DNA of 64,000 nt from Escherichia coli (lineage in GTDB: Bacteria; Pseudomonadota; Gammaproteobacteria; Enterobacterales; Enterobacteriaceae): assembly GCF_044647545.1 (NCBI RefSeq), contig NZ_CP172818.1; one strand, written 5' to 3'. The notes under the pieces were generated by a model. That model searched no databases. It was not told where the DNA came from and saw nothing but the letters and a program-made list of their open reading frames with translations. Shown piece after piece: positions 1,733 through 63,950 of the stretch. The position numbers were made by a program, and so were the translations under genes. Within the stretch, counting starts at the first letter, position 1. Each line of letters begins with the position of its first letter.

Positions 1733-1798
1733 TGCCAGACGCGTCTTCAGAATAAGTCGGATAAGGCATTTACGCCGCATCCGAGCTTTATTCCAGTT

Positions 1799-2419
1799 TT
1801 AAGCATGCCTCGCCGATGCTAACAGCGCTCCCACCAGCATAAACAACGAGCCGAAAATCTTATTCAGCGCCTTCATCTGCTTTGGTCCTTTAATCCATAG
1901 AGCAATCCGTTGAGCAAGGGTGGCGTAACCGATCATCACAATAATATCGACCACAATAGTGGTGACGCCGAGCACGATATACTGCATCAGTTGTGGCTGC
2001 TGCGGCATGATGAATTGCGGAAATAGCGCCGCCAGAAACACAATACTTTTGGGATTGGTAAGATTCACAAAAACTGCGCGCTGGAACAAATGTCGGCGCG
2101 ATTGAGTAGAGGCCAGCGATTTAAGATCAATTGCGCCAGCGGCGCGCCACTGCTGGATCCCAAGCCAAATCAGATAAGCTGCGCCCGCCCACTTCAACAC
2201 TTCAAACGCAATCACTGAGCGGGAAAATAGCGTCCCCAAACCCACGCCAACCAGCACAATATGAATCGCCAGTCCGGTCTGAAGCCCAGCAATAGACGCC
2301 ACCGCGCCGCGATAACCGTGGTTGAGCGAGGTGGTCATGGTGTTGATTGCGCCAGAGCCTGGCGACAGGCTTAAAATGATCGATGTCAGCAGGTAGGCAA
2401 ACCACCATTCTAAGGTCAT
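1799..2419 (-). CDS. rhtB: homoserine/homoserine-lactone efflux protein (LysE/RhtB family), 206 aa
   Basis: 206-aa membrane ORF convergent with rhtC, divergent from pldB. Confidence 0.9.
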
Positions 2420-2529
2420 GATGAACTCCCGGTGTGTCTATTTTTGTGCCACAATACGCTACTGTCGCAGCGTTGTGTCAGGCACGCTTAAAAAAACGAT
2501 TTTACGTGGTTTAAGAGGCAGATTACCTG

Positions 2530-3552
2530 ATGTTTCAGCAGCAAAAAGACTGGGAAACAAGAGAAAACGCGTTTGCTGCTTTTACCATGGGACTGCTGAC
2601 TGATTTCTGGCGTCAGCGTGATGAAGCAGAATTTACTGGTGTGGATGACATTCCGGTGCGCTTTGTCCGTTTTCGCGCACAGCACCATGACCGGGTGGTA
2701 GTCATCTGCCCGGGGCGTATTGAGAGCTACGTAAAATATGCGGAACTGGCCTACGATCTGTTCCATTTGGGGTTTGATGTCTTAATCATCGACCATCGCG
2801 GGCAGGGACGTTCCGGTCGCCTGTTAGCCGATCCGCATCTCGGGCATGTTAATCGCTTTAATGATTATGTTGATGATCTGGCGGCATTCTGGCAACAGGA
2901 GGTTCAGCCCGGTCCGTGGCGTAAACGTTATATACTGGCACATTCGATGGGCGGTGCGATCTCCACATTATTTCTGCAACGCCATCCAGGTGTATGTGAC
3001 GCCATTGCGCTAACTGCGCCAATGTTTGGGATCGTGATTCGTATGCCGTCATTTATGGCACGGCAGATCCTCAACTGGGCCGAAGCGCATCCACGTTTCC
3101 GTGATGGCTATGCAATAGGCACCGGGCGCTGGCGCGCGTTGCCGTTTGCTATCAACGTACTGACCCACAGCAGACAGCGATATCGACGTAACTTACGCTT
3201 CTATGCTGATGATCCAACGATTCGCGTCGGTGGGCCGACCTACCATTGGGTACGCGAAAGTATTCTGGCTGGCGAACAGGTGTTAGCCGGTGCGGGTGAT
3301 GACGCCACGCCAACGCTTCTCTTACAAGCTGAAGAGGAACGCGTGGTGGATAACCGCATGCATGACCGTTTTTGTGAACTCCGCACCGCTGCGGGCCATC
3401 CTGTCGAAGGAGGACGGCCGTTGGTAATTAAAGGTGCGTACCATGAGATCCTTTTTGAAAAGGACGCAATGCGCTCAGTCGCGCTCCACGCCATCGTTGA
3501 TTTTTTCAACAGGCATAACTCACCCAGCGGAAACCGCTCTACAGAGGTTTAA
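2530..3552 (+). CDS. pldB: lysophospholipase L2, 340 aa
   Basis: 340-aa ORF with alpha/beta hydrolase GHSMGG motif; conserved context. Confidence 0.92.
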   Translation: MFQQQKDWETRENAFAAFTMGLLTDFWRQRDEAEFTGVDDIPVRFVRFRAQHHDRVVVICPGRIESYVKYAELAYDLFHLGFDVLIIDHRGQGRSGRLLADPHLGHVNRFNDYVDDLAAFWQQEVQPGPWRKRYILAHSMGGAISTLFLQRHPGVCDAIALTAPMFGIVIRMPSFMARQILNWAEAHPRFRDGYAIGTGRWRALPFAINVLTHSRQRYRRNLRFYADDPTIRVGGPTYHWVRESILAGEQVLAGAGDDATPTLLLQAEEERVVDNRMHDRFCELRTAAGHPVEGGRPLVIKGAYHEILFEKDAMRSVALHAIVDFFNRHNSPSGNRSTEV

Positions 3553-3559
3553 ATTTCTT

Positions 3560-4360
3560 ATGTATCAGGTTGTTGCGTCTGATTTAGATGGCACGTTACT
3601 TTCTCCCGACCATACGTTATCCCCTTACGCCAAAGAAACTCTGAAGCTGCTCACCGCGCGCGGCATCAACTTTGTGTTTGCGACCGGTCGTCACCACGTT
3701 GATGTGGGGCAAATTCGCGATAATCTGGAGATTAAGTCTTACATGATTACCTCCAATGGCGCGCGCGTTCACGATCTGGATGGCAATCTGATTTTTGCTC
3801 ATAACCTGGATCGCGACATTGCCAGCGATCTGTTTGGCGTAGTCAACGACAATCCGGACATCATTACTAATGTTTATCGCGACGACGAATGGTTTATGAA
3901 TCGCCATCGCCCGGAAGAGATGCGCTTTTTTAAAGAAGCGGTGTTCAAATATGCGCTGTATGAGCCGGGATTACTGGAGCCGGAAGGCGTCAGCAAAGTG
4001 TTCTTCACCTGCGATTCCCATGAAAAACTTCTGCCACTGGAGCAAGCGATTAACGCTCGCTGGGGCGATCGCGTCAATGTCAGTTTCTCTACCTTAACCT
4101 GCCTGGAAGTCATGGCGGGCGGCGTGTCAAAAGGCCATGCGCTGGAAGCAGTGGCGAAGAAACTGGGCTACAGCCTGAAGGATTGTATTGCGTTTGGTGA
4201 CGGGATGAACGATGCCGAAATGCTGTCGATGGCGGGGAAAGGCTGCATTATGGGCAGTGCGCACCAGCGTCTGAAAGATCTGCATCCGGAACTGGAAGTG
4301 ATTGGTACTAACGCCGAGGACGCAGTGCCGCATTATCTGCGTAAGCTCTATTTATCGTAA
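3560..4360 (+). CDS. yigL: HAD-family sugar/pyridoxal phosphate phosphatase, 266 aa
   Basis: ATG at 3560 in frame with longer track ORF; HAD motifs (DLDGTLL, GDGMND). Confidence 0.9.
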   Translation: MYQVVASDLDGTLLSPDHTLSPYAKETLKLLTARGINFVFATGRHHVDVGQIRDNLEIKSYMITSNGARVHDLDGNLIFAHNLDRDIASDLFGVVNDNPDIITNVYRDDEWFMNRHRPEEMRFFKEAVFKYALYEPGLLEPEGVSKVFFTCDSHEKLLPLEQAINARWGDRVNVSFSTLTCLEVMAGGVSKGHALEAVAKKLGYSLKDCIAFGDGMNDAEMLSMAGKGCIMGSAHQRLKDLHPELEVIGTNAEDAVPHYLRKLYLS

Positions 4361-4435
4361 TCGTTCTTTATTTGGTCAGTTGTCAACCTGATACTTCGCT
4401 ACAATGGATACTCGTTAATCAAAGAGTTTTCCATT

Positions 4436-5335
4436 GTGGCGCTACTTATCATCACCACGATTCTGTGGGCCTTCTCCTTTAGCTTTTATGGCGAGTACCT
4501 TGCGGGGCACGTCGATAGCTATTTTGCGGTTCTGGTGCGCGTTGGCCTGGCGGCACTCGTTTTTCTGCCGTTTCTGCGTACCCGTGGCAATAGCCTGAAA
4601 ACGGTCGGCCTGTATATGCTGGTGGGCGCGATGCAGCTCGGTGTGATGTATATGCTGAGTTTCCGCGCCTATCTCTACCTGACGGTCTCCGAACTGTTGC
4701 TGTTCACCGTACTGACGCCGCTCTACATCACGCTGATTTATGACATCATGAGTAAGCGCCGTCTGCGCTGGGGCTATGCTTTTAGCGCCTTGCTGGCGGT
4801 GATTGGTGCCGGGATTATTCGCTATGATCAGGTCACCGACCATTTCTGGACTGGCTTATTGCTGGTGCAACTCTCCAATATCACTTTTGCCATCGGCATG
4901 GTGGGTTACAAACGTCTGATGGAAACTCGCCCGATGCCGCAGCATAACGCCTTTGCGTGGTTCTATCTTGGCGCGTTCCTGGTGGCAGTGATTGCATGGT
5001 TCTTGCTGGGAAATGCACAGAAAATGCCGCAAACCACGTTGCAATGGGGCATTCTGGTGTTTCTTGGCGTGGTGGCTTCCGGGATTGGCTACTTTATGTG
5101 GAACTACGGCGCGACGCAGGTGGACGCCGGAACGCTGGGCATTATGAATAATATGCACGTTCCGGCAGGGCTGCTGGTAAACCTGGCTATCTGGCACCAA
5201 CAGCCGCACTGGCCAACGTTTATTACAGGCGCGCTGGTGATCCTGGCCTCACTGTGGGTGCATCGTAAGTGGGTCGCTCCGCGCTCTTCACAAACGGCAG
5301 ATGATCGCAGGCGTGATTGCGCGCTGAACGAATAA
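4436..5335 (+). CDS. yigM: EamA/DMT-family membrane transporter (biotin transporter BioP/YigM), 299 aa
   Basis: 299-aa polytopic membrane ORF with GTG start; conserved position between yigL and metR. Confidence 0.85.
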
Positions 5336-6176
5336 ATGCTTCTGTAATCGGCTGACGCTGCTCTCCATCGCGCACGGCGGCGTACAGTCGGCTCCACAAG
5401 CCTTCGCCCAGGGTTTTGGTCACCACCAGACCCTGGCGCTCAAAACTCTCAACTACCCAATGCGGCAGCGCGGCAATACCCATCCGCGCGGCAACCATCT
5501 GAATCAACAATAAGGTGTTATCGACGCTTTTCAGTGACGGGCTGACGCCTGCCGGCTGAAGAAAATGCCGCCAGACATCCAGTCGACTACGCTGCACCGG
5601 ATAAATCAACAGCGTCTCGCTGGCGAGATCTTCCGGTGTAATTCGCGTTTTCGCCGCCAGTGGATGGTCAGGTGCTAACACCAGACGCACTTCATAGTCG
5701 AACATCGGCGAATAATGCAGGCCACTGCGCGGCAGAATATCGGACGTCATCACCAGATCCAGCTCGCCCTGTTGCAACGCAGGCTGCGGATCAAACGTTA
5801 CGCCCGATTTAAAATCCATCTCCACCTGCGGCCAGTTCTTATGGAAATTTTCTAATGCGGGCGTCAGCCACTGAATACAGCTATGGCACTCAATGGCAAT
5901 GCGCAGGCGCGTCTGCTGCGGTTCATTGCAGGCTTGCAGTGCCTGGCTAATTTGCGGCAGCACCTGATTTGCCAGTTGCAACAGGATTTCTCCCTGCGGT
6001 GTAAAGCGAAGCGGCTGGCTTTTACGCACAAATAGCCGGAAGCCAAGGCGTTGTTCCAGATCGCTAAACTGGTGAGACAGGGCGGATTGCGTTTGATGCA
6101 ACGTCGCCGCAGCGGCTGCGAGTGAGCCGCAGTTCCGCAACGCTTGTAGCGTTTTCAGGTGTTTTACTTCGATCAT
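5223..6176 (-). CDS. metR: LysR-family transcriptional activator of metE/metH, 317 aa
   Basis: 317-aa ORF with N-terminal LysR HTH, divergent from metE. Confidence 0.93.
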
Positions 6177-6293
6177 GAAAGTCCTTCACTTCGGCATGAA
6201 TAATTTGCGCTTGAGGAATATACAGTAACCGCCAATTATGGATGTGTAAACATCTGGACGGCTAAATACTAAAAATTCCATAAGGGGCATATA

Positions 6294-8555
6294 ATGACAA
6301 TTCTTAATCACACCCTCGGTTTCCCTCGCGTTGGCCTGCGTCGCGAGCTGAAAAAAGCGCAAGAGAGTTATTGGGCGGGGAACTCCACGCGTGAAGAACT
6401 GCTGGCGGTAGGGCGTGAACTGCGTGCTCGTCACTGGGATCAACAAAAGCAAGCAGGTATCGACCTGCTGCCGGTGGGTGATTTTGCCTGGTACGATCAT
6501 GTCCTGACCACCAGCCTGCTGCTGGGTAACGTTCCGGCGCGTCACCAGAACAAAGATGGTTCGGTAGATATCGACACCCTGTTCCGTATTGGTCGTGGAC
6601 GTGCGCCGACTGGCGAACCTGCGGCGGCGGCGGAAATGACCAAATGGTTTAACACCAACTATCACTACATGGTGCCGGAGTTCGTTAAAGGCCAACAGTT
6701 CAAACTGACCTGGACGCAGCTGCTGGAGGAAGTGGACGAGGCGCTGGCGCTGGGCCACAAGGTGAAACCTGTGCTGCTGGGGCCGGTTACCTGGCTGTGG
6801 CTGGGTAAAGTGAAAGGTGAACAGTTTGATCGCCTGAGCCTGCTGAACGACATTCTGCCGGTTTATCAGCAAGTGCTGGCAGAACTGGCAAAACGCGGCA
6901 TCGAGTGGGTACAGATCGACGAACCCGCGCTGGTACTGGAACTACCGCAGGCGTGGCTGGACGCCTATAAACCCGCTTACGACGCGCTCCAGGGGCAGGT
7001 GAAACTGCTGCTGACTACTTATTTTGAAGGCGTAACACCAAATCTCGACACGATTACTGCGCTGCCTGTTCAGGGGCTGCATGTGGACCTTGTACATGGT
7101 AAAGATGACGTTGCTGAACTGCACAAGCGCCTGCCTTCTGACTGGCTACTGTCTGTGGGTCTGATCAATGGTCGTAACGTCTGGCGCGCCGATCTTACCG
7201 AGAAATATGCGCAAATTAAGGACATTGTCGGCAAACGTGATTTGTGGGTGGCATCTTCCTGCTCACTGCTGCACAGCCCCATCGACCTGAGCGTGGAAAC
7301 GCGTCTTGATGCAGAAGTGAAAAGCTGGTTTGCCTTCGCCCTACAAAAATGCCATGAACTGGCACTGCTGCGCGATGCGCTGAACAGTGGTGATACGGCG
7401 GCTCTGGCAGAGTGGAGCGCTCCGATTCAGGCGCGTCGTCACTCTACTCGTGTACATAATCCGGCAGTAGAAAAGCGTCTGGCGGCGATCACCGCTCAGG
7501 ACAGTCAGCGTGCGAATGTCTATGAAGTGCGTGCTGAAGCCCAGCGTGCGCGTTTTAAACTGCCCGCGTGGCCGACCACCACGATTGGTTCCTTCCCGCA
7601 AACTACGGAGATTCGTACCCTGCGTCTGGATTTTAAAAAGGGTAATCTCGACGCCAATAACTACCGCACGGGCATTGCGGAACATATCAAGCAGGCCATT
7701 GTTGAGCAGGAACGTTTGGGACTGGATGTGCTGGTACATGGCGAGGCCGAGCGTAATGACATGGTGGAATACTTTGGCGAGCATCTGGATGGCTTTGTCT
7801 TTACGCAAAACGGTTGGGTACAGAGCTACGGTTCCCGCTGCGTGAAGCCACCGATTGTTATTGGTGACGTTAGCCGCCCGGCACCGATTACTGTGGAGTG
7901 GGCAAAATATGCGCAATCCCTGACTGATAAACCGGTGAAAGGGATGTTGACCGGCCCGGTGACTATTCTCTGCTGGTCGTTCCCGCGTGAAGATGTCAGC
8001 CGTGAAACCATCGCCAAACAAATTGCGCTGGCGCTGCGTGATGAAGTGGCCGATCTGGAAGCCGCTGGAATTGGCATCATCCAGATTGACGAACCGGCTC
8101 TGCGCGAAGGTTTACCGCTGCGTCGCAGCGACTGGGATGTGTATCTCCAGTGGGGCGTAGAGGCCTTCCGTATCAACGCCGCCGTGGCGAAAGATGACAC
8201 ACAAATCCACACTCACATGTGTTATTGCGAGTTCAACGACATCATGGATTCCATTGCGGCGCTGGACGCAGACGTCATCACCATCGAAACCTCGCGTTCC
8301 GACATGGAGTTGCTGGAGTCGTTTGAAGAGTTTGATTATCCAAATGAAATCGGTCCTGGCGTCTATGACATTCACTCGCCAAACGTACCGAGCGTGGAAT
8401 GGATTGAAGCCTTGCTGAAGAAAGCGGCAAAACGCATTCCGGCAGAGCGTCTGTGGGTCAACCCGGACTGTGGCCTGAAAACGCGCGGCTGGCCAGAAAC
8501 CCGCGCGGCACTGGCGAACATGGTGCAGGCGGCGCAGAATTTGCGTCGGGGGTAA
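6294..8555 (+). CDS. metE: cobalamin-independent methionine synthase, 753 aa
   Basis: 753-aa ORF beginning [14 protein letters not shown]; canonical MetE. Confidence 0.96.
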
Positions 8556-8595
8556 ATCCCAAACTGGGTGGCAAACACCACCCGGTCTTTTCTCA

Positions 8596-9411
8596 TTACA
8601 GCGACTTCTTCCCACCATACTGTGTAAACCATTCCAACATTCGCTGCCAGCCGTCTTTCGCAGACTCGGCATGATAGCTCGGACGATAATCGGCGTTGAA
8701 CGCATGCCCGGCATCCGGGTAGACGATAATCTCTGCTTTCGCGTTTGCTGCCCGCAGCGCCTGGCGCATCGTTTCAACGCTCTCCTGCGGAATGCTGTTA
8801 TCCTGGCCGCCATATAAGCCGATAACCGGCGCGTTAAGATCGGTTGCGATATCAACAGGCTGTTTCGGTGAATTCAGCGTCTTATCGCCGGTTAATTTGC
8901 CGTACCATGCCACCGCTGCTTTCAGTTGTGGATTATGCGCAGCATACAGCCAGGTGATGCGCCCACCCCAGCAAAATCCGGTGATCATTAAGCGATGAAC
9001 ATCGCCGCCGTTGCGTGACGCCCAACTGGCGACATGATCGAGATCGGCCAGCACCTGCGAGTCAGGCACTTTTGCTACCAGACCGCTAAGCAGCGTAGGG
9101 ATATCGGCAAAATCATTCGGATCGCCTTCGCGGAAGTAAAGTTCAGGTGCGATAGCCAGATACCCCTCCAGCGCCAGACGGCGACAAATATCGCGGATAT
9201 GTTCATGCACGCCAAAAATTTCCTGCACTACAATGACCACTGGCAGTGGGCCATCGCTTTGCTTTGGTCTGGCATGGTAAGCAGGCATGTTATCCCCTTG
9301 TGAAGGGATAGAGGTGAAGCCCGCCACAATCGCGTCGTCCGGAGTCTGAACGATGGTCGAAGCGAGAGGCGATGCAGCAGGTGCAAATCCAGATTGTTGT
9401 GTTGTTGCCAT
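8596..9411 (-). CDS. ysgA: dienelactone hydrolase family protein, about 271 aa (start chosen at internal Met; track ORF extends to 9477)
   Basis: Alpha/beta hydrolase-like ORF convergent with metE; start position uncertain. Confidence 0.8.
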
Positions 9412-9531
9412 GGTATTCTCCGTACCCTTATAAAAATGTTGCGCAATGTTAACTATAGTCAGCATGCAACAAATCACATTGCCTGAATCGGCTCATCTTT
9501 TATGCAGTCCTGCAGAATGAAGAGTGATTTA

Positions 9532-9599
9532 TGTGATTTGCATCACTTTTGGCGGGTAAATTTATGCAACGCATTTTCGTCATGGTGATGAGTATCACG
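9532..9599 (+). promoter_or_regulatory. udp promoter region with two CRP-type sites (tgtgatttgcatcact; ggtgatgagtatcacg)
   Basis: Two TGTGA-N6-TCACA-like motifs 75-140 bp upstream of udp; udp is a known CRP/CytR target. Confidence 0.6.
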
Positions 9600-9672
9600 A
9601 AAAAATGTTAAACCCTTCGGTAAAGTGTCTTTTTGCTTCTTCTGACTAAACCGATTCACAGAGGAGTTGTAT

Positions 9673-10515
9673 ATGTCCAAGTCTGATGTTTTTCATCTCG
9701 GCCTCACTAAAAACGATTTACAAGGGGCTACGCTTGCCATCGTCCCTGGCGACCCGGATCGTGTGGAAAAGATCGCCGCGCTGATGGATAAGCCGGTTAA
9801 GCTGGCATCTCATCGCGAATTCACCACCTGGCGTGCAGAGCTGGATGGTAAACCTGTTATCGTCTGCTCTACCGGTATCGGCGGCCCGTCTACCTCTATT
9901 GCTGTTGAAGAGCTGGCACAGCTGGGCATTCGCACCTTCCTGCGTATCGGTACAACGGGCGCTATTCAGCCGCATATTAATGTGGGTGATGTCCTGGTTA
10001 CCACGGCGTCTGTTCGTCTGGACGGCGCGAGCCTGCACTTCGCACCGCTGGAATTCCCGGCTGTCGCTGATTTCGAATGTACGACTGCGCTGGTTGAAGC
10101 GGCGAAGTCAATTGGTGCCACCACTCACGTTGGTGTGACGGCTTCTTCTGATACCTTCTACCCGGGTCAGGAACGTTACGATACTTACTCTGGTCGCGTA
10201 GTTCGTCACTTTAAAGGTTCTATGGAAGAGTGGCAGGCGATGGGCGTAATGAACTATGAAATGGAATCTGCAACCCTGCTGACCATGTGTGCAAGTCAGG
10301 GCCTGCGTGCCGGTATGGTAGCGGGGGTTATCGTTAACCGCACCCAGCAAGAGATCCCGAATGCTGAGACGATGAAACAAACCGAAAGCCATGCGGTGAA
10401 AATCGTGGTGGAAGCGGCGCGTCGTCTGCTGAAATTCTCTTTCTCCTGTCAGCCCTGGGTGAAGGCATCCCATCTTCATCTCCAGGATGCATTCACCGAA
10501 ATCGAATCGGGATAA
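9673..10515 (+). CDS. udp: uridine phosphorylase with a 27-codon C-terminal read-through; the expected stop position 10432-10434 reads AAA
   Basis: Translation matches Udp through ..VEAARRLL, then continues [27 protein letters not shown] to TAA at 10513-10515. Confidence 0.88.
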
Positions 10516-11690
10516 AACATCAAATAACTCCCCTCATAAATCTGGAAATCTAATTTTTTTTCAACTACTGCCCATTTCGCATTTGCCGGTAACCTATCAC
10601 ATGCATACCCTGATGGATCGCGTTTTCAGGCCGGTTCCATCGACACACCTGAATTTTTTCTCTTCGCCACGCATCACTTCGGCATTTCACCTTCTTTAAT
10701 CACCCAGCATGATTCAGCATTTCTCTCTGTGATAACACGTCAACTGCTTCGCCAGACCCTCGAATGACCGCAAGGTAAATAACTGCTGTTGCCACCCTTC
10801 GCACTCCGACATCCGCAAGCCATACCGCATGGGTTTTCGACCATCCCGCAGACACGTAAAACGTATCTGGAAACTCCTCACGTTTCTCCTGGAGGTAATT
10901 TCATGATCCCCAGAATTCACGTTTTTCTTTGATCTTGATTCGCCAAAACGCCATGCCCGAACGATGACTTCCCCATCCAGGATTAAATCTAAGTTCTGCA
11001 TTATCTTTCCTTTAATCATTTTATTTATCTTTCGGACGTCTTACCCCACCCATTCACGGATATCTCTTCTGCACAGGATTTGACGAAGTGCCACTTCAAC
11101 CCCACGACATATACTGTACTCGACAGAAATACCGCCACAATTTCATCCCGCTTGTAAACCCTCAACGCAACGGATATCGGCTCTTTCCTTCCAATCAAAA
11201 CAAAACCACTCCAAACGACGCATGTTCTAATAAAGCGCCCATTTTGTTTCATCACCACAGGCTTTACCGCCACTTTCTTCTTTCGTTAGATCAATCCTCC
11301 GATCCGTGATTCCATCATCGATCCTCTGACGCATTTCCACCCCCTGACTTTGATCTTCTCCAGATACAGCACTTCTCGCCTTCAACGATCCCCAGATGCA
11401 CGGTTCCAGTTAACCAACGTTCAAAACCGCAATTTTACACGAGTCTTTCCATCTCTCACTGAATCGATCATTTCACCCATTTACCCTCGTGACACGCAGT
11501 AACTTTTCCACAAACTGACTAAACATGTTTCTCCTCGTCCTGAACTCCCGATAATTTTAGTCACACGTTATAAACACATTAAGAACCGCCATCCACGTAA
11601 TAACGTTTCCGCCTCGTGTTGAAGAGGTTTCTCCCACTCACTTCTCTATGATATTCTGAATTTCCACATAATGACGTGGGGAAAAAGTGA
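10516..11690 (+). other. ORF-poor, G-depleted tract (top strand roughly 12-13% G, about 30% C) between udp and rmuC; origin and function unknown
   Basis: Hand counts on two 100-120 nt samples; only short ORFs (70-101 aa) on either strand, none resembling a known protein. Confidence 0.6.
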
Positions 11691-11696
11691 TATATC

Positions 11697-11725
11697 CCAC
11701 AATATAAACCCATCTCATATTGTGG
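11697..11725. promoter_or_regulatory. inverted repeat ccacaatat-N11-atattgtgg about 120 bp upstream of rmuC; candidate operator
   Basis: Perfect 9-bp arms read directly from the sequence. Confidence 0.35.
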
Positions 11726-11842
11726 ATAAATAATGAAAATTAACATTTTTGCGTAGCGCCTCGCAGGAAACTTCTTTCAAACTGGACGTTTGTACAGCAC
11801 AATTCTATTTTGTGCGGGTAAGTTGTTGCGTCAGGAGGCGTT

Positions 11843-13270
11843 GTGGATTTCTCAATCATGGTTTACGCAGTTATTGCATTGGTGGGTGTGGCAATTGGCT
11901 GGCTGTTTGCCAGTTATCAACATGCGCAGCAAAAAGCCGAGCAATTAGCTGAACGTGAAGAGATGGTCGCGGAGTTAAGCGCGGCAAAACAACAAATTAC
12001 TCAAAGCGAGCACTGGCGCGCTGAGTGCGAGTTACTCAATAACGAAGTGCGCAGCCTGCAAAGTATTAACACCTCTCTGGAGGCCGATCTGCGTGAAGTA
12101 ACCACGCGGATGGAAGCTGCACAGCAACATGCTGACGATAAAATTCGCCAGATGATTAACAGCGAGCAGCGCCTCAGTGAGCAGTTTGAAAACCTCGCCA
12201 ACCGTATTTTTGAGCACAGCAATCGCCGGGTTGATGAGCAAAACCGTCAGAGCCTGAACAGCCTGTTGTCGCCGCTACGTGAACAACTGGACGGTTTCCG
12301 CCGTCAGGTCCAGGACAGCTTTGGTAAAGAAGCCCAAGAACGTCATACCCTGACTCACGAAATCCGCAACCTCCAGCAACTCAACGCCCAGATGGCCCAG
12401 GAAGCGATCAACCTGACGCGTGCGCTGAAAGGCGACAATAAAACCCAGGGCAACTGGGGCGAGGTAGTATTGACGCGGGTGCTGGAGGCTTCCGGTCTGC
12501 GTGAAGGGTATGAATATGAAACCCAGGTCAGCATCGAAAATGACGCCCGCTCGCGGATGCAGCCGGATGTCATCGTGCGGTTGCCGCAGGGAAAAGATGT
12601 GGTGATCGACGCCAAAATGACGCTGGTCGCCTATGAACGCTATTTCAACGCTGAAGATGACTACACACGTGAAAGCGCGCTACAGGAGCATATCGCGTCG
12701 GTGCGTAACCACATCCGCTTGCTTGGACGCAAAGATTATCAACAGTTGCCGGGGCTGCGAACCCTGGATTACGTGCTGATGTTTATCCCCGTTGAGCCAG
12801 CATTTTTATTGGCACTGGATCGCCAGCCGGAGCTGATCACCGAAGCGTTGAAAAACAATATCATGCTGGTTAGCCCGACTACGCTGCTGGTGGCGCTGCG
12901 CACTATCGCCAACCTGTGGCGTTATGAGCATCAAAGCCGCAACGCCCAGCAAATCGCCGATCGTGCCAGCAAGCTGTACGACAAGATGCGTTTGTTCATC
13001 GATGACATGTCCGCGATTGGTCAAAGTCTCGACAAAGCGCAGGATAACTATCGCCAGGCAATGAAAAAACTCTCTTCAGGTCGCGGAAATGTGCTGGCGC
13101 AGGCAGAAGCGTTTCGCGGTTTAGGGGTAGAAATTAAACGCGAGATTAATCCGGATTTGGCTGAACAGGCGGTGAGCCAGGATGAAGAGTATCGACTTCG
13201 GTCGGTTCCGGAGCAACCGAATGATGAAGCTTATCAACGCGATGATGAATATAATCAGCAGTCGCGCTAG
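11843..13270 (+). CDS. rmuC: DNA recombination protein RmuC, 475 aa
   Basis: 475-aa ORF with GTG start after RBS aggagg; N-terminal TM segment, coiled-coil, C-terminal RmuC nuclease-like domain. Confidence 0.92.
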   Translation: MDFSIMVYAVIALVGVAIGWLFASYQHAQQKAEQLAEREEMVAELSAAKQQITQSEHWRAECELLNNEVRSLQSINTSLEADLREVTTRMEAAQQHADDKIRQMINSEQRLSEQFENLANRIFEHSNRRVDEQNRQSLNSLLSPLREQLDGFRRQVQDSFGKEAQERHTLTHEIRNLQQLNAQMAQEAINLTRALKGDNKTQGNWGEVVLTRVLEASGLREGYEYETQVSIENDARSRMQPDVIVRLPQGKDVVIDAKMTLVAYERYFNAEDDYTRESALQEHIASVRNHIRLLGRKDYQQLPGLRTLDYVLMFIPVEPAFLLALDRQPELITEALKNNIMLVSPTTLLVALRTIANLWRYEHQSRNAQQIADRASKLYDKMRLFIDDMSAIGQSLDKAQDNYRQAMKKLSSGRGNVLAQAEAFRGLGVEIKREINPDLAEQAVSQDEEYRLRSVPEQPNDEAYQRDDEYNQQSR

Positions 13271-21768: not shown

Positions 21769-21817
21769 AAGAACGGCAACTAAAACTTTATACAGTGGCA
21801 TTTAGATCGTCGCATCC

Positions 21818-23098
<1,281 letters not shown>

Positions 23099-25288
23099 TT
23101 AAGCCGTTTTCAGGTCGCCAACCGGACGGGCTGGCTCAACCGGGGGATAGTACGGTTCGTTATGACGCGCTTTATTACGCAGACCTTCCGGCACTTCATA
23201 CATCGGGCCGAGGTGCTGATATTGTTGTGCCATATCGAGGTATTTTGCGCTACCGAGGGTGTCCAGCCAGCGGAACGCGCCGCCGTGGAACGGAGGGAAC
23301 CCCAGTCCGTAGACCAGCGCCATATCCGCTTCTGCTGGAGTGGCGATAATGCCTTCTTCCAGACAGCGCACCACTTCGTTGACCATCGGGATCATCATGC
23401 GGGCGATAATCTCTTCTTCGCTGAAATCGCGCTTCGCGTGGCTGACCTCTGCCAGCAGGTCGTCAACGACGGCGTCTTCTTCTTTCTTCGGCTTGCCTTT
23501 ACTGTCTTCTTTATAACGCCAGAAACCGAGGCCGTTCTTCTGACCAAAACGGTTGGCATCAAACAGCGCATCGATGGCATCGCGGTAATCTTTCTGCATC
23601 CGCTGCGGGAAGCCTGCTGTCATCACCGCCTGAGCGTGATGCGCGGTATCAATCCCCACAACGTCCAGCAGATATGCCGGCCCCATCGGCCAGCCAAACT
23701 GTTTTTCCATCACTTTGTCGATCTTGCGGAAATCCGCGCCGTCGCGCAGCAGCTGGCTGAAACCCGCGAAGTAGGGGAACAGCACGCGGTTAACGAAGAA
23801 TCCGGGGCAGTCGTTAACCACAATCGGCGTCTTGCCCATCTTGCTCGCCCATGCGACGACTTTCGCGATGGTTTCGTCGGAGCTTTTCTCGCCGCGAATA
23901 ATTTCCACCAACGGCATCCGGTGCACCGGGTTAAAGAAGTGCATCCCGCAGAAGTTTTCCGGACGTTCCAGCGCGTTGGCCAGTTCGCTGATAGGAATGG
24001 TTGAAGTGTTAGACGCCAGCACGGTATCCGGGCGTACTTTCTGCTCGGTTTCTGCCAGCACGGCTTTTTTCACTTTCGGGTTTTCAACAACCGCTTCTAC
24101 CACAACATCCACGCGGTCAAACCCGGCGTAGTCGAGCGTTGGGTGAATTGTGGAGATCACGCCAGCCAGTTTCAGACCATCGATCTTGCCGCGCTCAAGC
24201 TGCTTGTTCAGCAGTTTCGCGGCTTCGGTCATGCCGAGGGTTAACGACTTGTCGTTGATATCTTTCATGACAACCGGCACGCCTTTCCACGCAGACTGGT
24301 AAGCGATGCCGCCGCCCATAATGCCTGCGCCCAGCACAGCGGCCTGTTTCGGGGTTTCAACATCTTTGGTGAGTTTCTTCGCTTTACCTTTTACATATTG
24401 ATCGTTAAGGAAAATGCCGACCAGTGCGCGGGCTTCGTTGGTATGCGCCAGCGGGACAAAACTTTTGTTTTCCAGGTTTAAGGCTTCTTCACGACCAAAA
24501 CGGGCCGCAGCTTCAATGGTTTTTACTGCGGTGATGGGGGCCGGATAATGTTTCCCCGCCGTTTGCGCGACCATCCCTTTAGCGATGGTGAAGCTCATGG
24601 TGACTTCAATCTTGCTCAGTTTTAGCGGTTCCAGCTTCGGCTGACGTTTTGCTTTCCAGTCGAGGTCGCCGTTAATGGCCTGGCGTAAAATCGCCATCGC
24701 CCCTTCAACCAGTTTTTCTGCTTTGACTACGCCATCCACCAGACCGATTTTCAGCGCCTGATCCGCGCCGACATCTTTACCGGCGGCAATGATTTCCAGC
24801 GCACTGTCAGCGCCCAGCATACGTGGCATACGTACAGAACCGCCAAAGCCCGGCATGATGCCCAGTTTAGTTTCCGGCAGACCGATGCGCAGATCCGGCG
24901 TCGCCAGACGATAATCGGTCGCCAGCACGCATTCGCAGCCACCGCCCAGCGCATAGCCGTTGACAGCAGCAATGGTCGGCACCGGCAGATCCTCCAGGCG
25001 ATTAAACACGCTATTGGCAAAGTGTAGCCACTGACTTAACTGTTCTTCAGGAACGAGGAACAGGGACAAAAATTCGGTGATATCAGCACCGACGATAAAG
25101 GCTGCTTTGTTCGAACGCAGCAGCAGCCCTTTTAGATCTGATTGCTGTTCCAGCACGCCGATGGCCTCGCCGAGGCTGGCGACGGTGGCAGTGTCGAGTT
25201 TATTAACTGAACCTGGGGCATCAAATACCAGTTCGGCAATGCCATCTTCCAGCCAGTCAAGGTACAGGGTGTCGCCTTTGTAAAGCAT
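23099..25288 (-). CDS. fadB: fatty acid oxidation complex alpha subunit (enoyl-CoA hydratase / 3-hydroxyacyl-CoA dehydrogenase), 729 aa
   Basis: Start at [22 protein letters not shown] (internal Met of longer track ORF). Confidence 0.95.
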
Positions 25289-29847: not shown

Positions 29848-31389
<1,542 letters not shown>

Positions 31390-31835: not shown

Positions 31836-34739
<2,904 letters not shown>

Positions 34740-34939: not shown

Positions 34940-34968
34940 CCACCTTTTTGCGTTGGTGCGGAATAAAT

Positions 34969-50531: not shown

Positions 50532-50558
50532 AGAAAAAAGCCCATGCAGAGATGGGCT
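50532..50558 (-). terminator. intrinsic terminator between glnA and glnL
   Basis: Hairpin agcccatctctgcatgggct followed by TTTTTT on the minus strand. Confidence 0.7.
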
Positions 50559-50583
50559 GAAGTTTCCCGAACAACTTCAACTA

Positions 50584-54206: not shown

Positions 54207-54239
54207 AAAAAACCTGCCATCGCTGGCAGGTTTTTTTTT
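54207..54239 (+). terminator. intrinsic terminator downstream of typA
   Basis: aaaaaacctgccatcgctggcaggttttttttt. Confidence 0.85.
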
Positions 54240-54405
54240 GCCTGTCGTGAGCGCACACCAATGCGAGTATCTCCCTTATAAGTCTGTGGTTACGTCAATA
54301 GAGAGCTTTGTCACAATTATCTGCAAAGTCATACGCCGTTAATTGCTTTCTTTTTTGGCGTAAGCGTAAGATGCTTCATCTGGTTTAAACCAAAAGGATT
54401 AAACA

Positions 54406-55115
54406 ATGGCGGAGAATCAATCCACCGTAGAAAATGCAAAAGAGAAACTGGATCGGTGGTTGAAAGATGGCATCACCACGCCGGGTGGAAAACTCCCTTC
54501 AGAAAGAGAGCTGGGAGAACTGCTGGGCATTAAACGTATGACGCTGCGCCAGGCGTTGTTGAACCTCGAGGCAGAATCCAAAATCTTCCGTAAGGATTGT
54601 AGGGGTGGTTCGTGACCCAGCCGCGATTTAATTACAGTCCGGAGCTGTCAGCGAGCTTTCAGCGGGCCGCAATTGAGCAAGGACGAGAGCCTTCCTGGGG
54701 GTTTACCGAGAAAAACCGTACCAGCGATATTCCCGAGACGCTCGCGCCACTGATCGCAGTGACACCATCAACTGAACTCTATCGCATCACCGGCTGGGGG
54801 GCGCTGGAAGGACATAAAGTTTTCTATCACGAAACATATATTAATCCTGAAGTTGCTCCGGGCTTTATTGAACAACTTGAAAACCACTCATTTTCTGCAG
54901 TCTGGGAAAAGTGCTACCAAAAAGAGACGGTAGTAAAAAAATTGATTTTCAAACCCGTCAGAATGCCGGGCGATATCAGCAAGTATCTTGGCGGTTCTGC
55001 GGGTATGCCAGCGATCTTAATTGAAAAGCATCGCGCCGACCAGCAAGGCAATATTGTCCAAATAGATATTGAATATTGGCGATTTGAGGCCGTAGACCTC
55101 ATCATTAATCTGTAG
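54406..55115 (+). pseudogene. yihL: GntR-family transcriptional regulator YihL, interrupted by a frameshift near 54590-54615 (ORFs 54406..54615, 69 aa, and 54612..55115, 167 aa)
   Basis: Two adjacent ORFs in different frames overlapping at gtga; together 236 aa, matching the remembered YihL length (N-terminal HTH plus C-terminal UTRA-like domain). Confidence 0.7.
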
Positions 55116-55122
55116 GTGTTTT

Positions 55123-56103
55123 ATGGTGACAATAAATAACGCAAGAAAGATTCTACAACGTGTCGACACTCTTCCTCTTTATTTACATGCTTATGCCTTT
55201 CATTTAAATATGCGGCTGGAAAGAGTGTTGCCTGCTGATTTACTTGATATCGCAAGTGAAAATAATCTACGTGGCGTCAAAATCCATGTTCTCGATGGCG
55301 AGCGTTTTTCTCTTGGTAATATGGACGATAAAGAACTCTCTGCCTTTGGGGATAAAGCCCGCCGTCTGAACCTTGATATTCATATTGAAACCAGCGCCTC
55401 AGATAAGGCATCTATTGACGAAGCCGTCGCCATCGCGTTGAAAACTGGGGCATCGTCCGTACGTTTTTATCCACGTTATGAAGGTAATTTGCGCGACGTA
55501 TTATCGATTATCGCTAACGACATTGCCTATGTACGGGAAACGTATCAGGACAGCGGCCTGACTTTTACGATCGAGCAGCATGAAGATTTAAAAAGTCATG
55601 AGCTGGTGTCGCTGGTCAAAGAAAGTGAGATGGAATCTCTTTCCTTACTGTTTGATTTTGCGAACATGATCAATGCAAATGAGCATCCCATCGACGCTTT
55701 AAAAACGATGGCACCGCATATTACCCAGGTCCATATCAAAGATGCCTTGATCGTTAAAGAACCGGGTGGCCTGGGTCATAAAGCCTGTATTTCAGGTCAG
55801 GGTGATATGCCGTTCAAAGCGTTATTAACGCACCTTATCTGCCTGGGTGATGATGAGCCGCAGGTGACGGCATATGGCCTGGAAGAAGAGGTTGATTACT
55901 ATGCGCCGGCGTTCCGCTTTGAAGACGAAGATGATAATCCGTGGATCCCTTATCGCCAGATGAGTGAAACACCATTGCCAGAAAATCATTTACTGGATGC
56001 GCGGTTACGTAAAGAAAAAGAAGATGCAATTAATCAGATAAATCATGTGCGTAACGTACTACAACAAATCAAACAAGAGGCAAACCATCTTCTGAACCAC
56101 TAA
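55123..56103 (+). CDS. yihM: xylose-isomerase-like TIM-barrel (sugar phosphate isomerase/epimerase family) protein YihM, 326 aa
   Basis: 326-aa ORF in conserved position. Confidence 0.85.
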   Translation: MVTINNARKILQRVDTLPLYLHAYAFHLNMRLERVLPADLLDIASENNLRGVKIHVLDGERFSLGNMDDKELSAFGDKARRLNLDIHIETSASDKASIDEAVAIALKTGASSVRFYPRYEGNLRDVLSIIANDIAYVRETYQDSGLTFTIEQHEDLKSHELVSLVKESEMESLSLLFDFANMINANEHPIDALKTMAPHITQVHIKDALIVKEPGGLGHKACISGQGDMPFKALLTHLICLGDDEPQVTAYGLEEEVDYYAPAFRFEDEDDNPWIPYRQMSETPLPENHLLDARLRKEKEDAINQINHVRNVLQQIKQEANHLLNH

Positions 56104-56204
56104 TAAGTTTTAACTCATACGCAGTTAATAAAACCATTCCATATGAATGGTCGGTATCTTATTGCCTTTAAAACAGTGATTTTAAAAATCGCTTAGGGGA
56201 TGTT

Positions 56205-57470
56205 ATGCTCACGAAAAAGAAATGGGCGTTATTTAGTCTATTAACACTGTGTGGCGGTACAATTTATAAATTACCGTCGCTGAAAGATGCGTTTTATATC
56301 CCGATGCAGGAATATTTCCATTTGACCAATGGTCAAATTGGTAATGCTATGTCGGTAAACTCATTTGTCACCACAGTGGGCTTTTTTCTGTCTATTTATT
56401 TTGCCGATAAACTACCGCGCAGATACACCATGTCATTCTCACTCATTGCGACAGGATTACTGGGTGTTTATTTGACGACAATGCCGGGGTATTGGGGCAT
56501 CCTCTTTGTCTGGGCGCTATTTGGCGTTACTTGCGACATGATGAACTGGCCGGTCTTGCTCAAGTCGGTAAGTCGATTGGGCAATAGCGAACAACAAGGT
56601 CGGTTGTTTGGCTTCTTCGAAACAGGGCGTGGCATTGTCGATACCGTGGTGGCATTTTCTGCGTTGGCAGTATTTACCTGGTTTGGCAGTGGCTTATTAG
56701 GTTTTAAAGCAGGCATCTGGTTCTATTCCCTTATTGTGATTGCCGTAGGCATTATTATTTTCTTTGTCCTGAATGACAAAGAAGAGGCACCGTCCGTTGA
56801 GGTGAAAAAAGAAGACGGAGCATCGAAAAACACCAGTATGACCTCGGTGCTGAAAGACAAAACTATCTGGCTTATCGCTTTTAACGTCTTCTTCGTTTAC
56901 GCGGTTTACTGTGGCCTGACATTCTTCATTCCATTCCTGAAAAACATCTATCTATTGCCCGTTGCGCTGGTGGGGGCTTACGGCATCATTAACCAATACT
57001 GTCTGAAAATGATTGGTGGACCGATTGGTGGCATGATTTCAGATAAGATCCTGAAATCGCCAAGTAAATATCTATGCTACACCTTTATCATTAGTACCGC
57101 TGCGCTCGTACTGTTGATTATGCTGCCGCACGAAAGTATGCCGGTCTATTTAGGGATGGCATGTACGCTGGGCTTTGGCGCGATAGTCTTTACACAGCGA
57201 GCCGTATTTTTTGCACCTATCGGCGAAGCAAAAATTGCTGAAAATAAAACAGGTGCGGCGATGGCGTTGGGTAGCTTTATTGGTTACGCTCCGGCGATGT
57301 TCTGCTTCAGTCTGTATGGCTACATTCTGGATTTAAATCCGGGGATTATTGGCTACAAAATCGTGTTTGGCATTATGGCCTGCTTCGCATTCAGTGGTGC
57401 GGTGGTTTCCGTAATGCTGGTTAAGCGTATTAGCCAACGTAAGAAAGAGATGCTGGCGGCTGAAGCTTAA
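56205..57470 (+). CDS. yihN: MFS-family transporter YihN, 421 aa
   Basis: 421-aa polytopic membrane ORF. Confidence 0.88.
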   Translation: MLTKKKWALFSLLTLCGGTIYKLPSLKDAFYIPMQEYFHLTNGQIGNAMSVNSFVTTVGFFLSIYFADKLPRRYTMSFSLIATGLLGVYLTTMPGYWGILFVWALFGVTCDMMNWPVLLKSVSRLGNSEQQGRLFGFFETGRGIVDTVVAFSALAVFTWFGSGLLGFKAGIWFYSLIVIAVGIIIFFVLNDKEEAPSVEVKKEDGASKNTSMTSVLKDKTIWLIAFNVFFVYAVYCGLTFFIPFLKNIYLLPVALVGAYGIINQYCLKMIGGPIGGMISDKILKSPSKYLCYTFIISTAALVLLIMLPHESMPVYLGMACTLGFGAIVFTQRAVFFAPIGEAKIAENKTGAAMALGSFIGYAPAMFCFSLYGYILDLNPGIIGYKIVFGIMACFAFSGAVVSVMLVKRISQRKKEMLAAEA

Positions 57471-57476
57471 TTAATG

Positions 57477-57560
<84 letters not shown>

Positions 57561-63236: not shown

Positions 63237-63589
63237 AAATAATCTCCATAGAGTATAAAGCTAATATTTCATGCCATCCTGTTGTTACAGGTTTCATTAA
63301 TTAAAGATTGTGTGCTATAAATAAAACCCCATAAGTGATATATAAAAACTTTTTCAGCCCGGCGGATTGCCGCCATTTTTAACCAAAAATGCCAGTTACA
63401 ATAATAACTAACAATAAACGGAGCAGAATCCAGCCGGGAATTCCCATCCCTTTTATCAACATAGAACCGGAGGCAATCAGCAACAAAAAGACCATCACAC
63501 GGAACACTTTGACTGAAAGCGTTTATGCACATATCTCCAACAAGCGAACCGAGAATCAGGAAAACAAAAAACACCAGTTAAAAAAAGAA

Positions 63590-63950
63590 ACATCAAAATC
63601 CCCCCCCCCCGCCCCCCCCGCCCCCCTTTTTGGGGAAAAAAAGGGTCCGAGGCCCCGAATCCCCCGGGCCCAATTCCAGCATACCTACACCCCCGCCCCG
63701 CCCCCCGCCCCGCTCGCCGCTACTCGCCGATACGCCGCGACCATAACGTCAAAACGACAGACAAGAAATAAACATAAAAAAAAAAAAAAAGAAAAGGATC
63801 CCCCTACCCATTAAAAACGTACATACAAACACACAAACAAACAACAAAAAAAAAAATAACGCCCCCCCAACACAAAAAAAAAAACCCCAACAAAAAGAAA
63901 AAAAAAAAAAAAAAAAAAAAAAACACCCCCCAAAAAAAAAAAAAACATAA
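63590..63950. repeat. low-complexity, homopolymer-rich (poly-C, poly-A) sequence; probable assembly or read-end artefact
   Basis: Runs such as c11, a25, ccccgcccc repeats and acaaacaaaca, atypical of E. coli. Confidence 0.8.

Follow-up and report, generated by a model that had tools for sequence, protein, structure and literature searches.

The G-poor tract between udp and rmuC in an Escherichia coli sequence is very probably a corrupted copy of an ordinary accessory island

Why should the spacer between udp and rmuC of an E. coli sequence contain more than a kilobase of DNA that is poor in G and free of open reading frames? We addressed this question in a window of 64,000 nucleotides (contig NZ_CP172818.1 of assembly GCF_044647545.1; "the window" denotes this whole stretch, and positions refer to it). 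The tract had been pointed out at 10432-11700 by a sequence-only reading, which considered a novel noncoding element, foreign DNA, or an assembly or synthetic artefact as its possible nature.

A sliding-window count confirmed the depletion. Over 10432-11700 the G content is 14.3% and the C content 30.7%. The anomaly itself starts between 10436 and 10451 and extends to 11746, not 11700, and for these 1311 nt (10436-11746) we obtained A 26.4%, C 30.2%, G 14.1% and T 29.3%. In windows of 300 nt the G content reached its minimum of 12-13% between 10900 and 11400, and the GC skew in windows of 200 nt ranged from -0.28 to -0.49. Relative to 1184 windows of equal length from elsewhere in the sequence the tract had a z of -5.4 for the G fraction and of -6.9 for the GC skew, the next-lowest G content outside the tract being 19.8%. 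The description as ORF-free also held, the longest ORF that lies wholly within the tract having 101 aa (10714-11019, minus strand).

In K-12 MG1655 the udp-rmuC spacer measures 140 bp (udp end 4017192, rmuC start 4017333), within the range of 0.1-0.2 kb stated for it in that reading, and the spacer of strain VCSW7 is likewise 140 bp long. The tract is thus extra DNA relative to K-12, as had been proposed when it was called an insertion or replacement. The same spacer of about 1.3 kb was found in 0 of 5426 RefSeq complete E. coli genomes, and that proposal was therefore not refuted. A repeat scan found no terminal inverted or direct repeats flanking the tract, in line with the first impression; the sole inverted pair (18 nt, 83% complementarity) has one arm inside the tract and does not lie at its ends. 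An insertion sequence, a transposon or an integrative element was rejected, since terminal repeats and ORFs are both missing. Promoter- and terminator-like sites occurred in the tract at chance level only, and a cmscan search of both strands over 9300-12500 returned no Rfam family at E<=1, which speaks against a functional noncoding element. A 45-mer of the tract had no match in the GTDB representative genomes and a 34-mer none in JGI metagenome contigs. A separate search of the GTDB representatives with a 26-mer of rmuC returned a single match, an E. coli-like contaminant contig of 385 bp in a Bacillus assembly, from which it is clear that this collection is not the origin of the window.

When gaps and mismatches were tolerated, the origin of the tract became apparent. 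By megablast a counterpart was present in 1456 of the 5426 complete E. coli genomes, in 1455 of them as one 1521-nt piece of about 81.5% identity that is annotated as an IclR-family regulator and a 2-dehydro-3-deoxygalactonokinase. These genes belong to an island composed of tctA, tctB, tctC and dgoA-like, dgoK-like and iclR genes, all on the minus strand, which lies between udp and rmuC in BL21, CE10, SMS-3-5, ECONIH1 and others (in ECONIH1, NZ_CP009859.1, at 4547094-4552533). The tract is colinear with the right-hand 1572 bp of the island, i.e. the 5' two-thirds of the dgoK-like gene, iclR and the 120-nt spacer upstream of it. The left ~4 kb (tctA, tctB, tctC, dgoA and the 3' end of dgoK) are not in the window. 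The features of the locus are:

9673-10434, plus strand: udp coding sequence, 253 codons plus AAA at the position of the K-12 TAA stop; the ORF continues spuriously to 10515 (ORF list)
10432-10450, plus strand: remnant of the K-12-type udp-rmuC spacer, AAATTCTCTTTCTCCTGTC (comparison with K-12)
10451-11001, minus strand: remnant of the dgoK-like gene, garbled 5' two-thirds (alignment and coordinate map to ECONIH1 23083-23743, annotation)
11021-11638, minus strand: IclR-family regulator gene, complete but garbled (alignment, annotation)
11640-11746, no strand assigned: iclR-rmuC intergenic region, garbled 120 nt, including the palindrome CCCACAATAT...ATATTGTGGG (alignment)
11843-13270, plus strand: rmuC, intact and the same as in the ECONIH1 lineage (ORF, alignment)

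Chromosomal site, orientation and the base-for-base colinearity of the right-hand 1572 bp are shared with the natural tctABC-dgoA-dgoK-iclR island. Unlike the island, the tract lacks 56% of the top-strand G's, 3-5% of the other bases and any reading frame, and its left edge is K-12 spacer instead of the island junction. By scattered single-base deletions iclR is reduced from 768 nt in ECONIH1 to 618 nt, with no reading frame left. An intact IclR-family gene would require an ORF of about 255 aa, to be compared with the longest ORF of only 101 aa, and an intact dgoK-like gene (an ORF of about 334 aa) was rejected because the tract covers no more than the 5' 661 of 1005 nt, with frameshifts throughout. 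The island and its genes are ordinary and already annotated, and judged from its colinearity the tract is a corrupted copy of these accessory genes and not a new element. Of the suggested foreign DNA, only so much remains as that the template is a common accessory island of E. coli.

To describe the corruption we aligned the tract to the ECONIH1 template permitting single-base gaps. Out of 419 template G's, 228 were deleted and 8 substituted (56%). Losses of the other bases were small (A 2.6%, C 4.7%, T 5.3%), and only 4 bases were inserted. An alignment-independent check gave the same picture: removing G from both sequences raised the identity from 81.6% to 94.8%, while stripping any one of the other three bases brought it down to about 77.5%. 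Across 1.5 kb the rate of G loss was roughly even and did not rise with the distance from an anchor. It was strongly dependent on context. G's before A were mostly retained (75% overall; 80-87% in CGA, 78-83% in TGA), whereas 0 of 16 were retained in AGT and most were lost in AGC, TGT and TGC. Random independent deletion of G's is ruled out by this dependence, and damage of the deaminase or kataegis type by the 228 deletions compared with only 2 G>A changes.

The same data bear on the idea that the tract, being C-rich and G-poor, might yield an untranslated RNA or act as a Rho-utilisation element downstream of udp. C exceeds G over at least 80 nt of untranslated sequence, a likeness to Rho-utilisation (rut) sites in composition only, and with C at 30%, G at 14% and no ORFs the tract is formally rut-like; the udp terminator hairpin is moreover missing, such that read-through from udp would be possible. 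The intact template, however, has a normal composition (G 26.7%, C 25.8%), and the rut-like composition is thus a by-product of G dropout. While rut regions are likewise C-rich, G-poor and untranslated over more than 80 nt, the tract owes this composition to G dropout from coding DNA and lacks conservation: it consists of degraded coding genes rather than evolved sequence, it is conserved in 0 of 5426 genomes, and the 1456 matching ones have intact genes. Together with the missing Rfam match and the chance-level promoter and terminator sites, this leaves a functional element scarcely credible. The colinearity with dgoK and iclR effectively refutes the rut reading, and with it the suggestion of a novel noncoding element.

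A slow decay of the island was considered as another origin of the tract. Decaying pseudogenes and island remnants in E. coli and Shigella are similar in that they appear as frameshifted, ORF-free relics of accessory genes beside a deletion junction. Natural decay, however, is slow and produces substitutions of mixed type with occasional indels, in contrast to 228 single-G deletions, and the 24-kb flank of the tract is 100% identical to a strain with an intact island. Gradual pseudogene decay was rejected on the grounds that the flanks are 100% identical to strains carrying the island intact: with ECONIH1 identity of 100.0% on the right (24 kb) and over 1783-8551 and 8613-10435 on the left, there was no time for it.

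The flanks also characterize the window as a whole. Its SNPs are those of ECONIH1, an ST648-like strain, with an identity of 100.000% at 1783-8551, 100% at 8613-10435 and 100.0% at 11760-36000, compared with only 96.6-98.1% to K-12 across the same core. At all large structural differences, on the other hand, the window is colinear with K-12 MG1655. The ECONIH1-only Rpn gene (site 1733-1782) and the ECONIH1-only 8.5-kb LysR-fdrA island (site 8552-8603) are not in the window, and in place of the ECONIH1 STM4011-4015 cluster it carries the K-12 genes yihLMN (54237-57550). The latter are 99.82% identical to MG1655, with all 6 differences inside 167 bp, while their flanks have only 95-98% identity to K-12-type genomes. 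Away from breakpoints just 3 isolated differences from ECONIH1 were found: a 3-bp deletion at 21808, G>A G>A at 30105-30106 and A>G at 33316. The whole window is thus a chimera. The SNPs of one strain combined with the indels of the other are the signature of a consensus on a foreign scaffold, and the window displays what a reference-guided consensus leaves behind, i.e. a mixed SNP/indel profile, retained scaffold-only DNA and errors at structural breakpoints. A real K-12 x ST648 recombinant was rejected, because donor islands would accompany the SNPs, and here they are systematically excluded.

Traces of both parents are found at the edges of the tract. The udp end reads CTGCTGTAATTCTC in K-12, CTGCTGAAATAA in ECONIH1 and CTGCTGAAATTCTC in the window, and the window allele CTGCTGAAATTCTC reads as a blend of the other two; the AAATTCTCTTCTCC allele is found in a few natural genomes too. 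The left 19 nt (AAATTCTCTTTCTCCTGTC), following the CTG CTG of udp, equal the K-12 spacer sequence TAATTCTCTTCTCCTGTC apart from a T>A change and an additional T. Combining the ECONIH1 allele CTGCTGAAATAA and the K-12 allele CTGCTGTAATTC yields this T>A change, which abolishes the stop codon of udp and thereby creates the spurious extension of 27 codons. The extended Udp had no match in an exact-protein index. The K-12 udp terminator hairpin, which would be expected next, is not present in the window. Instead the sequence passes abruptly to the middle of dgoK, at a place where the island and the K-12 spacer share CTGTC and TGAAGGC. Overall, the K-12 spacer and the natural island are no more alike than expected by chance (score 19, shuffle mean 20.7), which identifies the K-12-like bases at the left edge as scaffold and not as island sequence. 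The right edge ATTTTTGCG resembles K-12 more closely than ECONIH1; the loss of G's ends with position 11746, and the window is identical to ECONIH1 from 11747 onward.

Disturbed sequence is not confined to this locus. Noisy or unique sequence occurs at 1733-1782, 8552-8603, 10436-11746, 34940, 50560-50570 and 63308-63944, such that the window is noisy wherever K-12 and ECONIH1 differ in structure, with junction sequences that are unique among the 5426 genomes. The empty sites of rhtC-rhtB and metE-ysgA are K-12 sequence with 3 and 6 changes, respectively, and had no match above 93-95% over 161 nt in the 5426 genomes. At 34940 the sequence ACCACC takes the place of the 5S rRNA 3' end together with the terminator, and at 50560-50570 both parents have a longer glnL-glnA spacer than the window. 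The last of these sites is a second garbled gene:

63308-63944, minus strand: TauE/SafE sulfite-exporter gene, second garbled tract (876 nt in ECONIH1; alignment)

In its first third 99% of the A's, 94% of the C's, 86% of the T's and 67% of the G's are retained, in its last third only 81%, 33%, 12% and 4%, respectively. The sequence runs out in poly-A and poly-C before perfect sequence returns near the TauE start codon. Nevertheless the second tract is colinear with the true TauE gene (score 102.5 vs 11.8 +/- 12.8 for shuffles), a gene that is intact beside YihQ in all natural genomes with the same YihQ. It also holds a 17-mer, TGATATATAAAAACTTT, of the K-12 allele upstream of yihQ and not of the ECONIH1 allele. 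The order of loss, G>T>C>A, is common to both tracts, and because of this common order they point to one technical process acting at different severity.

Against this background we considered whether the first tract could be a physical scar in a living strain. An island remnant would have arisen by a 4-kb deletion at microhomology, i.e. a template switch between udp and dgoK, followed by about 1.5 kb of error-prone top-strand synthesis in which more than half of the template C's were passed over by a polymerase or reverse transcriptase, for instance through dNTP-stabilised misalignment under dGTP starvation. The damage is indeed strand-specific, begins exactly at the deletion junction, proceeds in the 3' direction of the top strand and varies with the base that follows, and such polarity and context dependence are expected of a skipping polymerase. 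However, no in vivo process is known that removes 56% of one base across 1.5 kb. The window contains another tract, degraded in a different way, at a distance of 52 kb, and no fewer than 4 further noisy junctions, each of them at a structural difference between K-12 and ECONIH1. Local mutation cannot supply the piece of K-12 spacer at the left edge or yihLMN in an ECONIH1 backbone. We consider both the deletion with error-prone synthesis and the scar by template switching very improbable. If true, the scar would represent strand-coordinated deletion hypermutation, which has never been described in bacteria.

The two tracts also invite a purely instrumental explanation, in which gaps were filled by single reads of very low quality while one detection channel faded, G first, then T and then C. 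This would account for the loss order G>>T>C>A in both tracts, for the large excess of deletions over substitutions, and for a second tract that is homopolymer-like and smoothed but still colinear with the true gene (102.5 vs 11.8 +/- 12.8). It leaves unexplained the K-12 allele fragments within and at the edges of the tracts and the location of all anomalies at K-12/ECONIH1 structural differences; in addition the error level of the first tract is almost constant over 1.57 kb, with only 4 inserted bases. A faded read therefore seems improbable to us, if less so than a scar.

An independent record shows that chimeras of this kind are not singular. In a protein index the exact YsgA protein of the window was found in one record only, GenBank CP092815.1 (GCA_022531175.1, 4.67 Mb), for which a literature search returned no paper. 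Over 12.8 kb it has the ECONIH1 SNPs and the exact K-12 metE-ysgA junction. Like the window, it thus combines ECONIH1-type SNPs with K-12 structure, lacks the ECONIH1-only islands and keeps the K-12 junctions, from which it follows that chimeric consensus genomes of such design exist in public data. Between udp and rmuC, it has a plain 140-bp spacer of K-12 type with the same T>A change, and the tract is thus not there in the chimera nearest to the window. Its 12.8 kb include 22 N's, several of them at CCWGG (Dcm) or GATC (Dam) motifs, a pattern familiar from long-read consensus calls that suggests real long-read data behind the record. Doubtful positions are marked by N in CP092815.1, whereas the window has no N's but garbled partial insertions.

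This comparison is relevant for the possibility that the corrupted tracts were made purely in silico, by deliberate degradation or by machine generation, for instance with a generative model or a lossy reconstruction, and not through a read-based consensus. The progressive fading of the second tract into poly-A and poly-C with its abrupt return to perfect sequence, the blending of alleles from two strains at the edges and the lack of any similar sequence in the collections searched would all agree with such an origin. Yet ECONIH1 SNPs reproduced exactly over 24 kb and K-12 yihLMN reproduced exactly over 3.1 kb are the product of a mapping and consensus pipeline rather than of a generator, and CP092815.1, in which the same chimeric design goes together with N's in methylation motifs, suggests real long-read data. 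We regard an in silico origin as unlikely, although it is the least unlikely of the alternatives. The tract would still not be biology, and also with a faded read it would likewise be no real feature.

A technical artefact is supported by what was observed directly: the tract follows the island base for base, its loss is G-specific, the window is chimeric, and noise accompanies each structural breakpoint. Very probably the tract is a badly rebuilt piece of an ordinary island in a chimeric consensus, so that of the options initially listed the artefact is the one favoured by a G-stripped island copy in a chimeric window. ECONIH1/ST648-like reads or sequence would have been laid on a K-12 MG1655 scaffold, the source strain carrying the 5.7-kb tctABC-dgoA-dgoK-iclR island between udp and rmuC. 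In colinear regions the consensus would become a perfect ECONIH1-type copy; DNA that only ECONIH1 has would be skipped or inserted partially and noisily, and DNA that only K-12 has would retain the K-12 sequence. Between udp and rmuC some 1.57 kb from the island's right end would have been forced in, with CT-CTGTC and TGAAGGC, short stretches that resemble the K-12 spacer by chance, as anchors. Being written with weak support, the sequence would have lost bases in the order G >> T > C > A, presumably through a software or chemistry step that made G the first base to drop out, and the outcome would be a frameshift-riddled, G-poor and C-rich string without function. We know of no documented tool with 56% G dropout and the observed context rule. 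Furthermore, plain mapping of reads on K-12 does not by itself explain why a 1.57-kb insert was made here while an island of 8.5 kb was cleanly skipped.

Almost certainly, then, the tract is not a real biological feature, and it offers no new element, RNA or mechanism. Its significance lies in data quality. The source sequence is apparently a chimeric consensus with wrong gene content: it lacks islands of the ECONIH1 type, shows K-12 genes that do not belong there, extends Udp spuriously, cuts off the 5S rRNA at its 3' end, and garbles TauE, iclR and dgoK. Scans for GC skew, ORF deserts or rut sites will flag such tracts as novel. A simple discriminator is to strip one base from both sequences and to realign them to pangenome neighbours.

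Several positions in the window carry the structure of K-12 MG1655, or garbled sequence, within a backbone that follows ECONIH1 (NZ_CP009859.1), the ST648-like strain whose SNP pattern it shares. They are listed here in order along the window.

Structural and garbled features of the window
1733-1782, rhtC-rhtB 'empty-site' junction, K-12 sequence with 3 changes, all G>A
8552-8603, metE-ysgA 'empty-site' junction, K-12 sequence with 6 changes
10432-10515, spurious 27-codon extension of udp, because the stop codon TAA reads AAA
34935-34950, 5S rRNA gene, 3' end and terminator replaced by 'GGGACCACCTTTTTGCG'
50555-50575, glnL-glnA intergenic region, garbled junction (glnZ sRNA region in K-12)
54237-57550, yihL-yihM-yihN, 99.82% identical to K-12 MG1655
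63308-63944, second garbled tract, lying between yihQ and yihR, TauE/SafE sulfite-exporter gene

In place of yihL-yihM-yihN, ECONIH1 carries an STM4011-4015 radical-SAM cluster; the surrounding backbone is otherwise 100% ECONIH1. All 6 differences of this block from K-12 are confined to 54598-54764, and one of them, deletion of an A at ~54600, causes a frameshift in yihL. At the two empty-site junctions ECONIH1 is likewise occupied, by an Rpn gene between rhtC and rhtB and by an 8.5-kb LysR-fdrA island between metE and ysgA. Among 5426 complete E. coli genomes neither junction found a match above 93-95% over 161 nt.

The TauE/SafE tract runs colinear with its ECONIH1 counterpart, yet more and more bases drop out along it (G>T>C>A), and its end consists of long poly-A/poly-C junk; from ~63945 the sequence is perfect again. 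A 17-mer of the K-12 allele lies inside it. Regarding udp, a natural 259-aa Udp allele also has AAA, followed by FSSPV and a stop, and occurs in a few genomes (CP148426.1, CP125369.1, LR890262.1).

The 5S rRNA junction coincides with another structural difference between K-12 and ECONIH1 and is 43 bp shorter than in ECONIH1 and 212 bp shorter than in K-12. The glnL-glnA spacer is about 34-37 bp shorter than that of ECONIH1 and, by estimate, ~110-130 bp shorter than that of K-12. Two isolated differences from ECONIH1 were also found in identical surroundings. One is G>A G>A at 30105-30106, within the rRNA operon; the other, at 21808 in the fre-fadA spacer, is a 3-bp deletion that adjoins the site of a ~190 bp difference between K-12 and ECONIH1.

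An exact 26-mer from the E. coli rmuC start, absent from the GTDB E. coli representative, was found in NZ_BOQB01000716.1, a 385-bp contig, probably E. coli contamination, of a 'Bacillus sanguinis' assembly.

The combination of K-12 structure with ECONIH1 SNPs recurs in CP092815.1 (GCA_022531175.1), a public 'complete' E. coli chromosome of 4.67 Mb. This record contains N's at Dcm and Dam motifs, and because of the inserted N's udp, rmuC and metE have no gene calls. It has the look of a long-read consensus guided by a reference.
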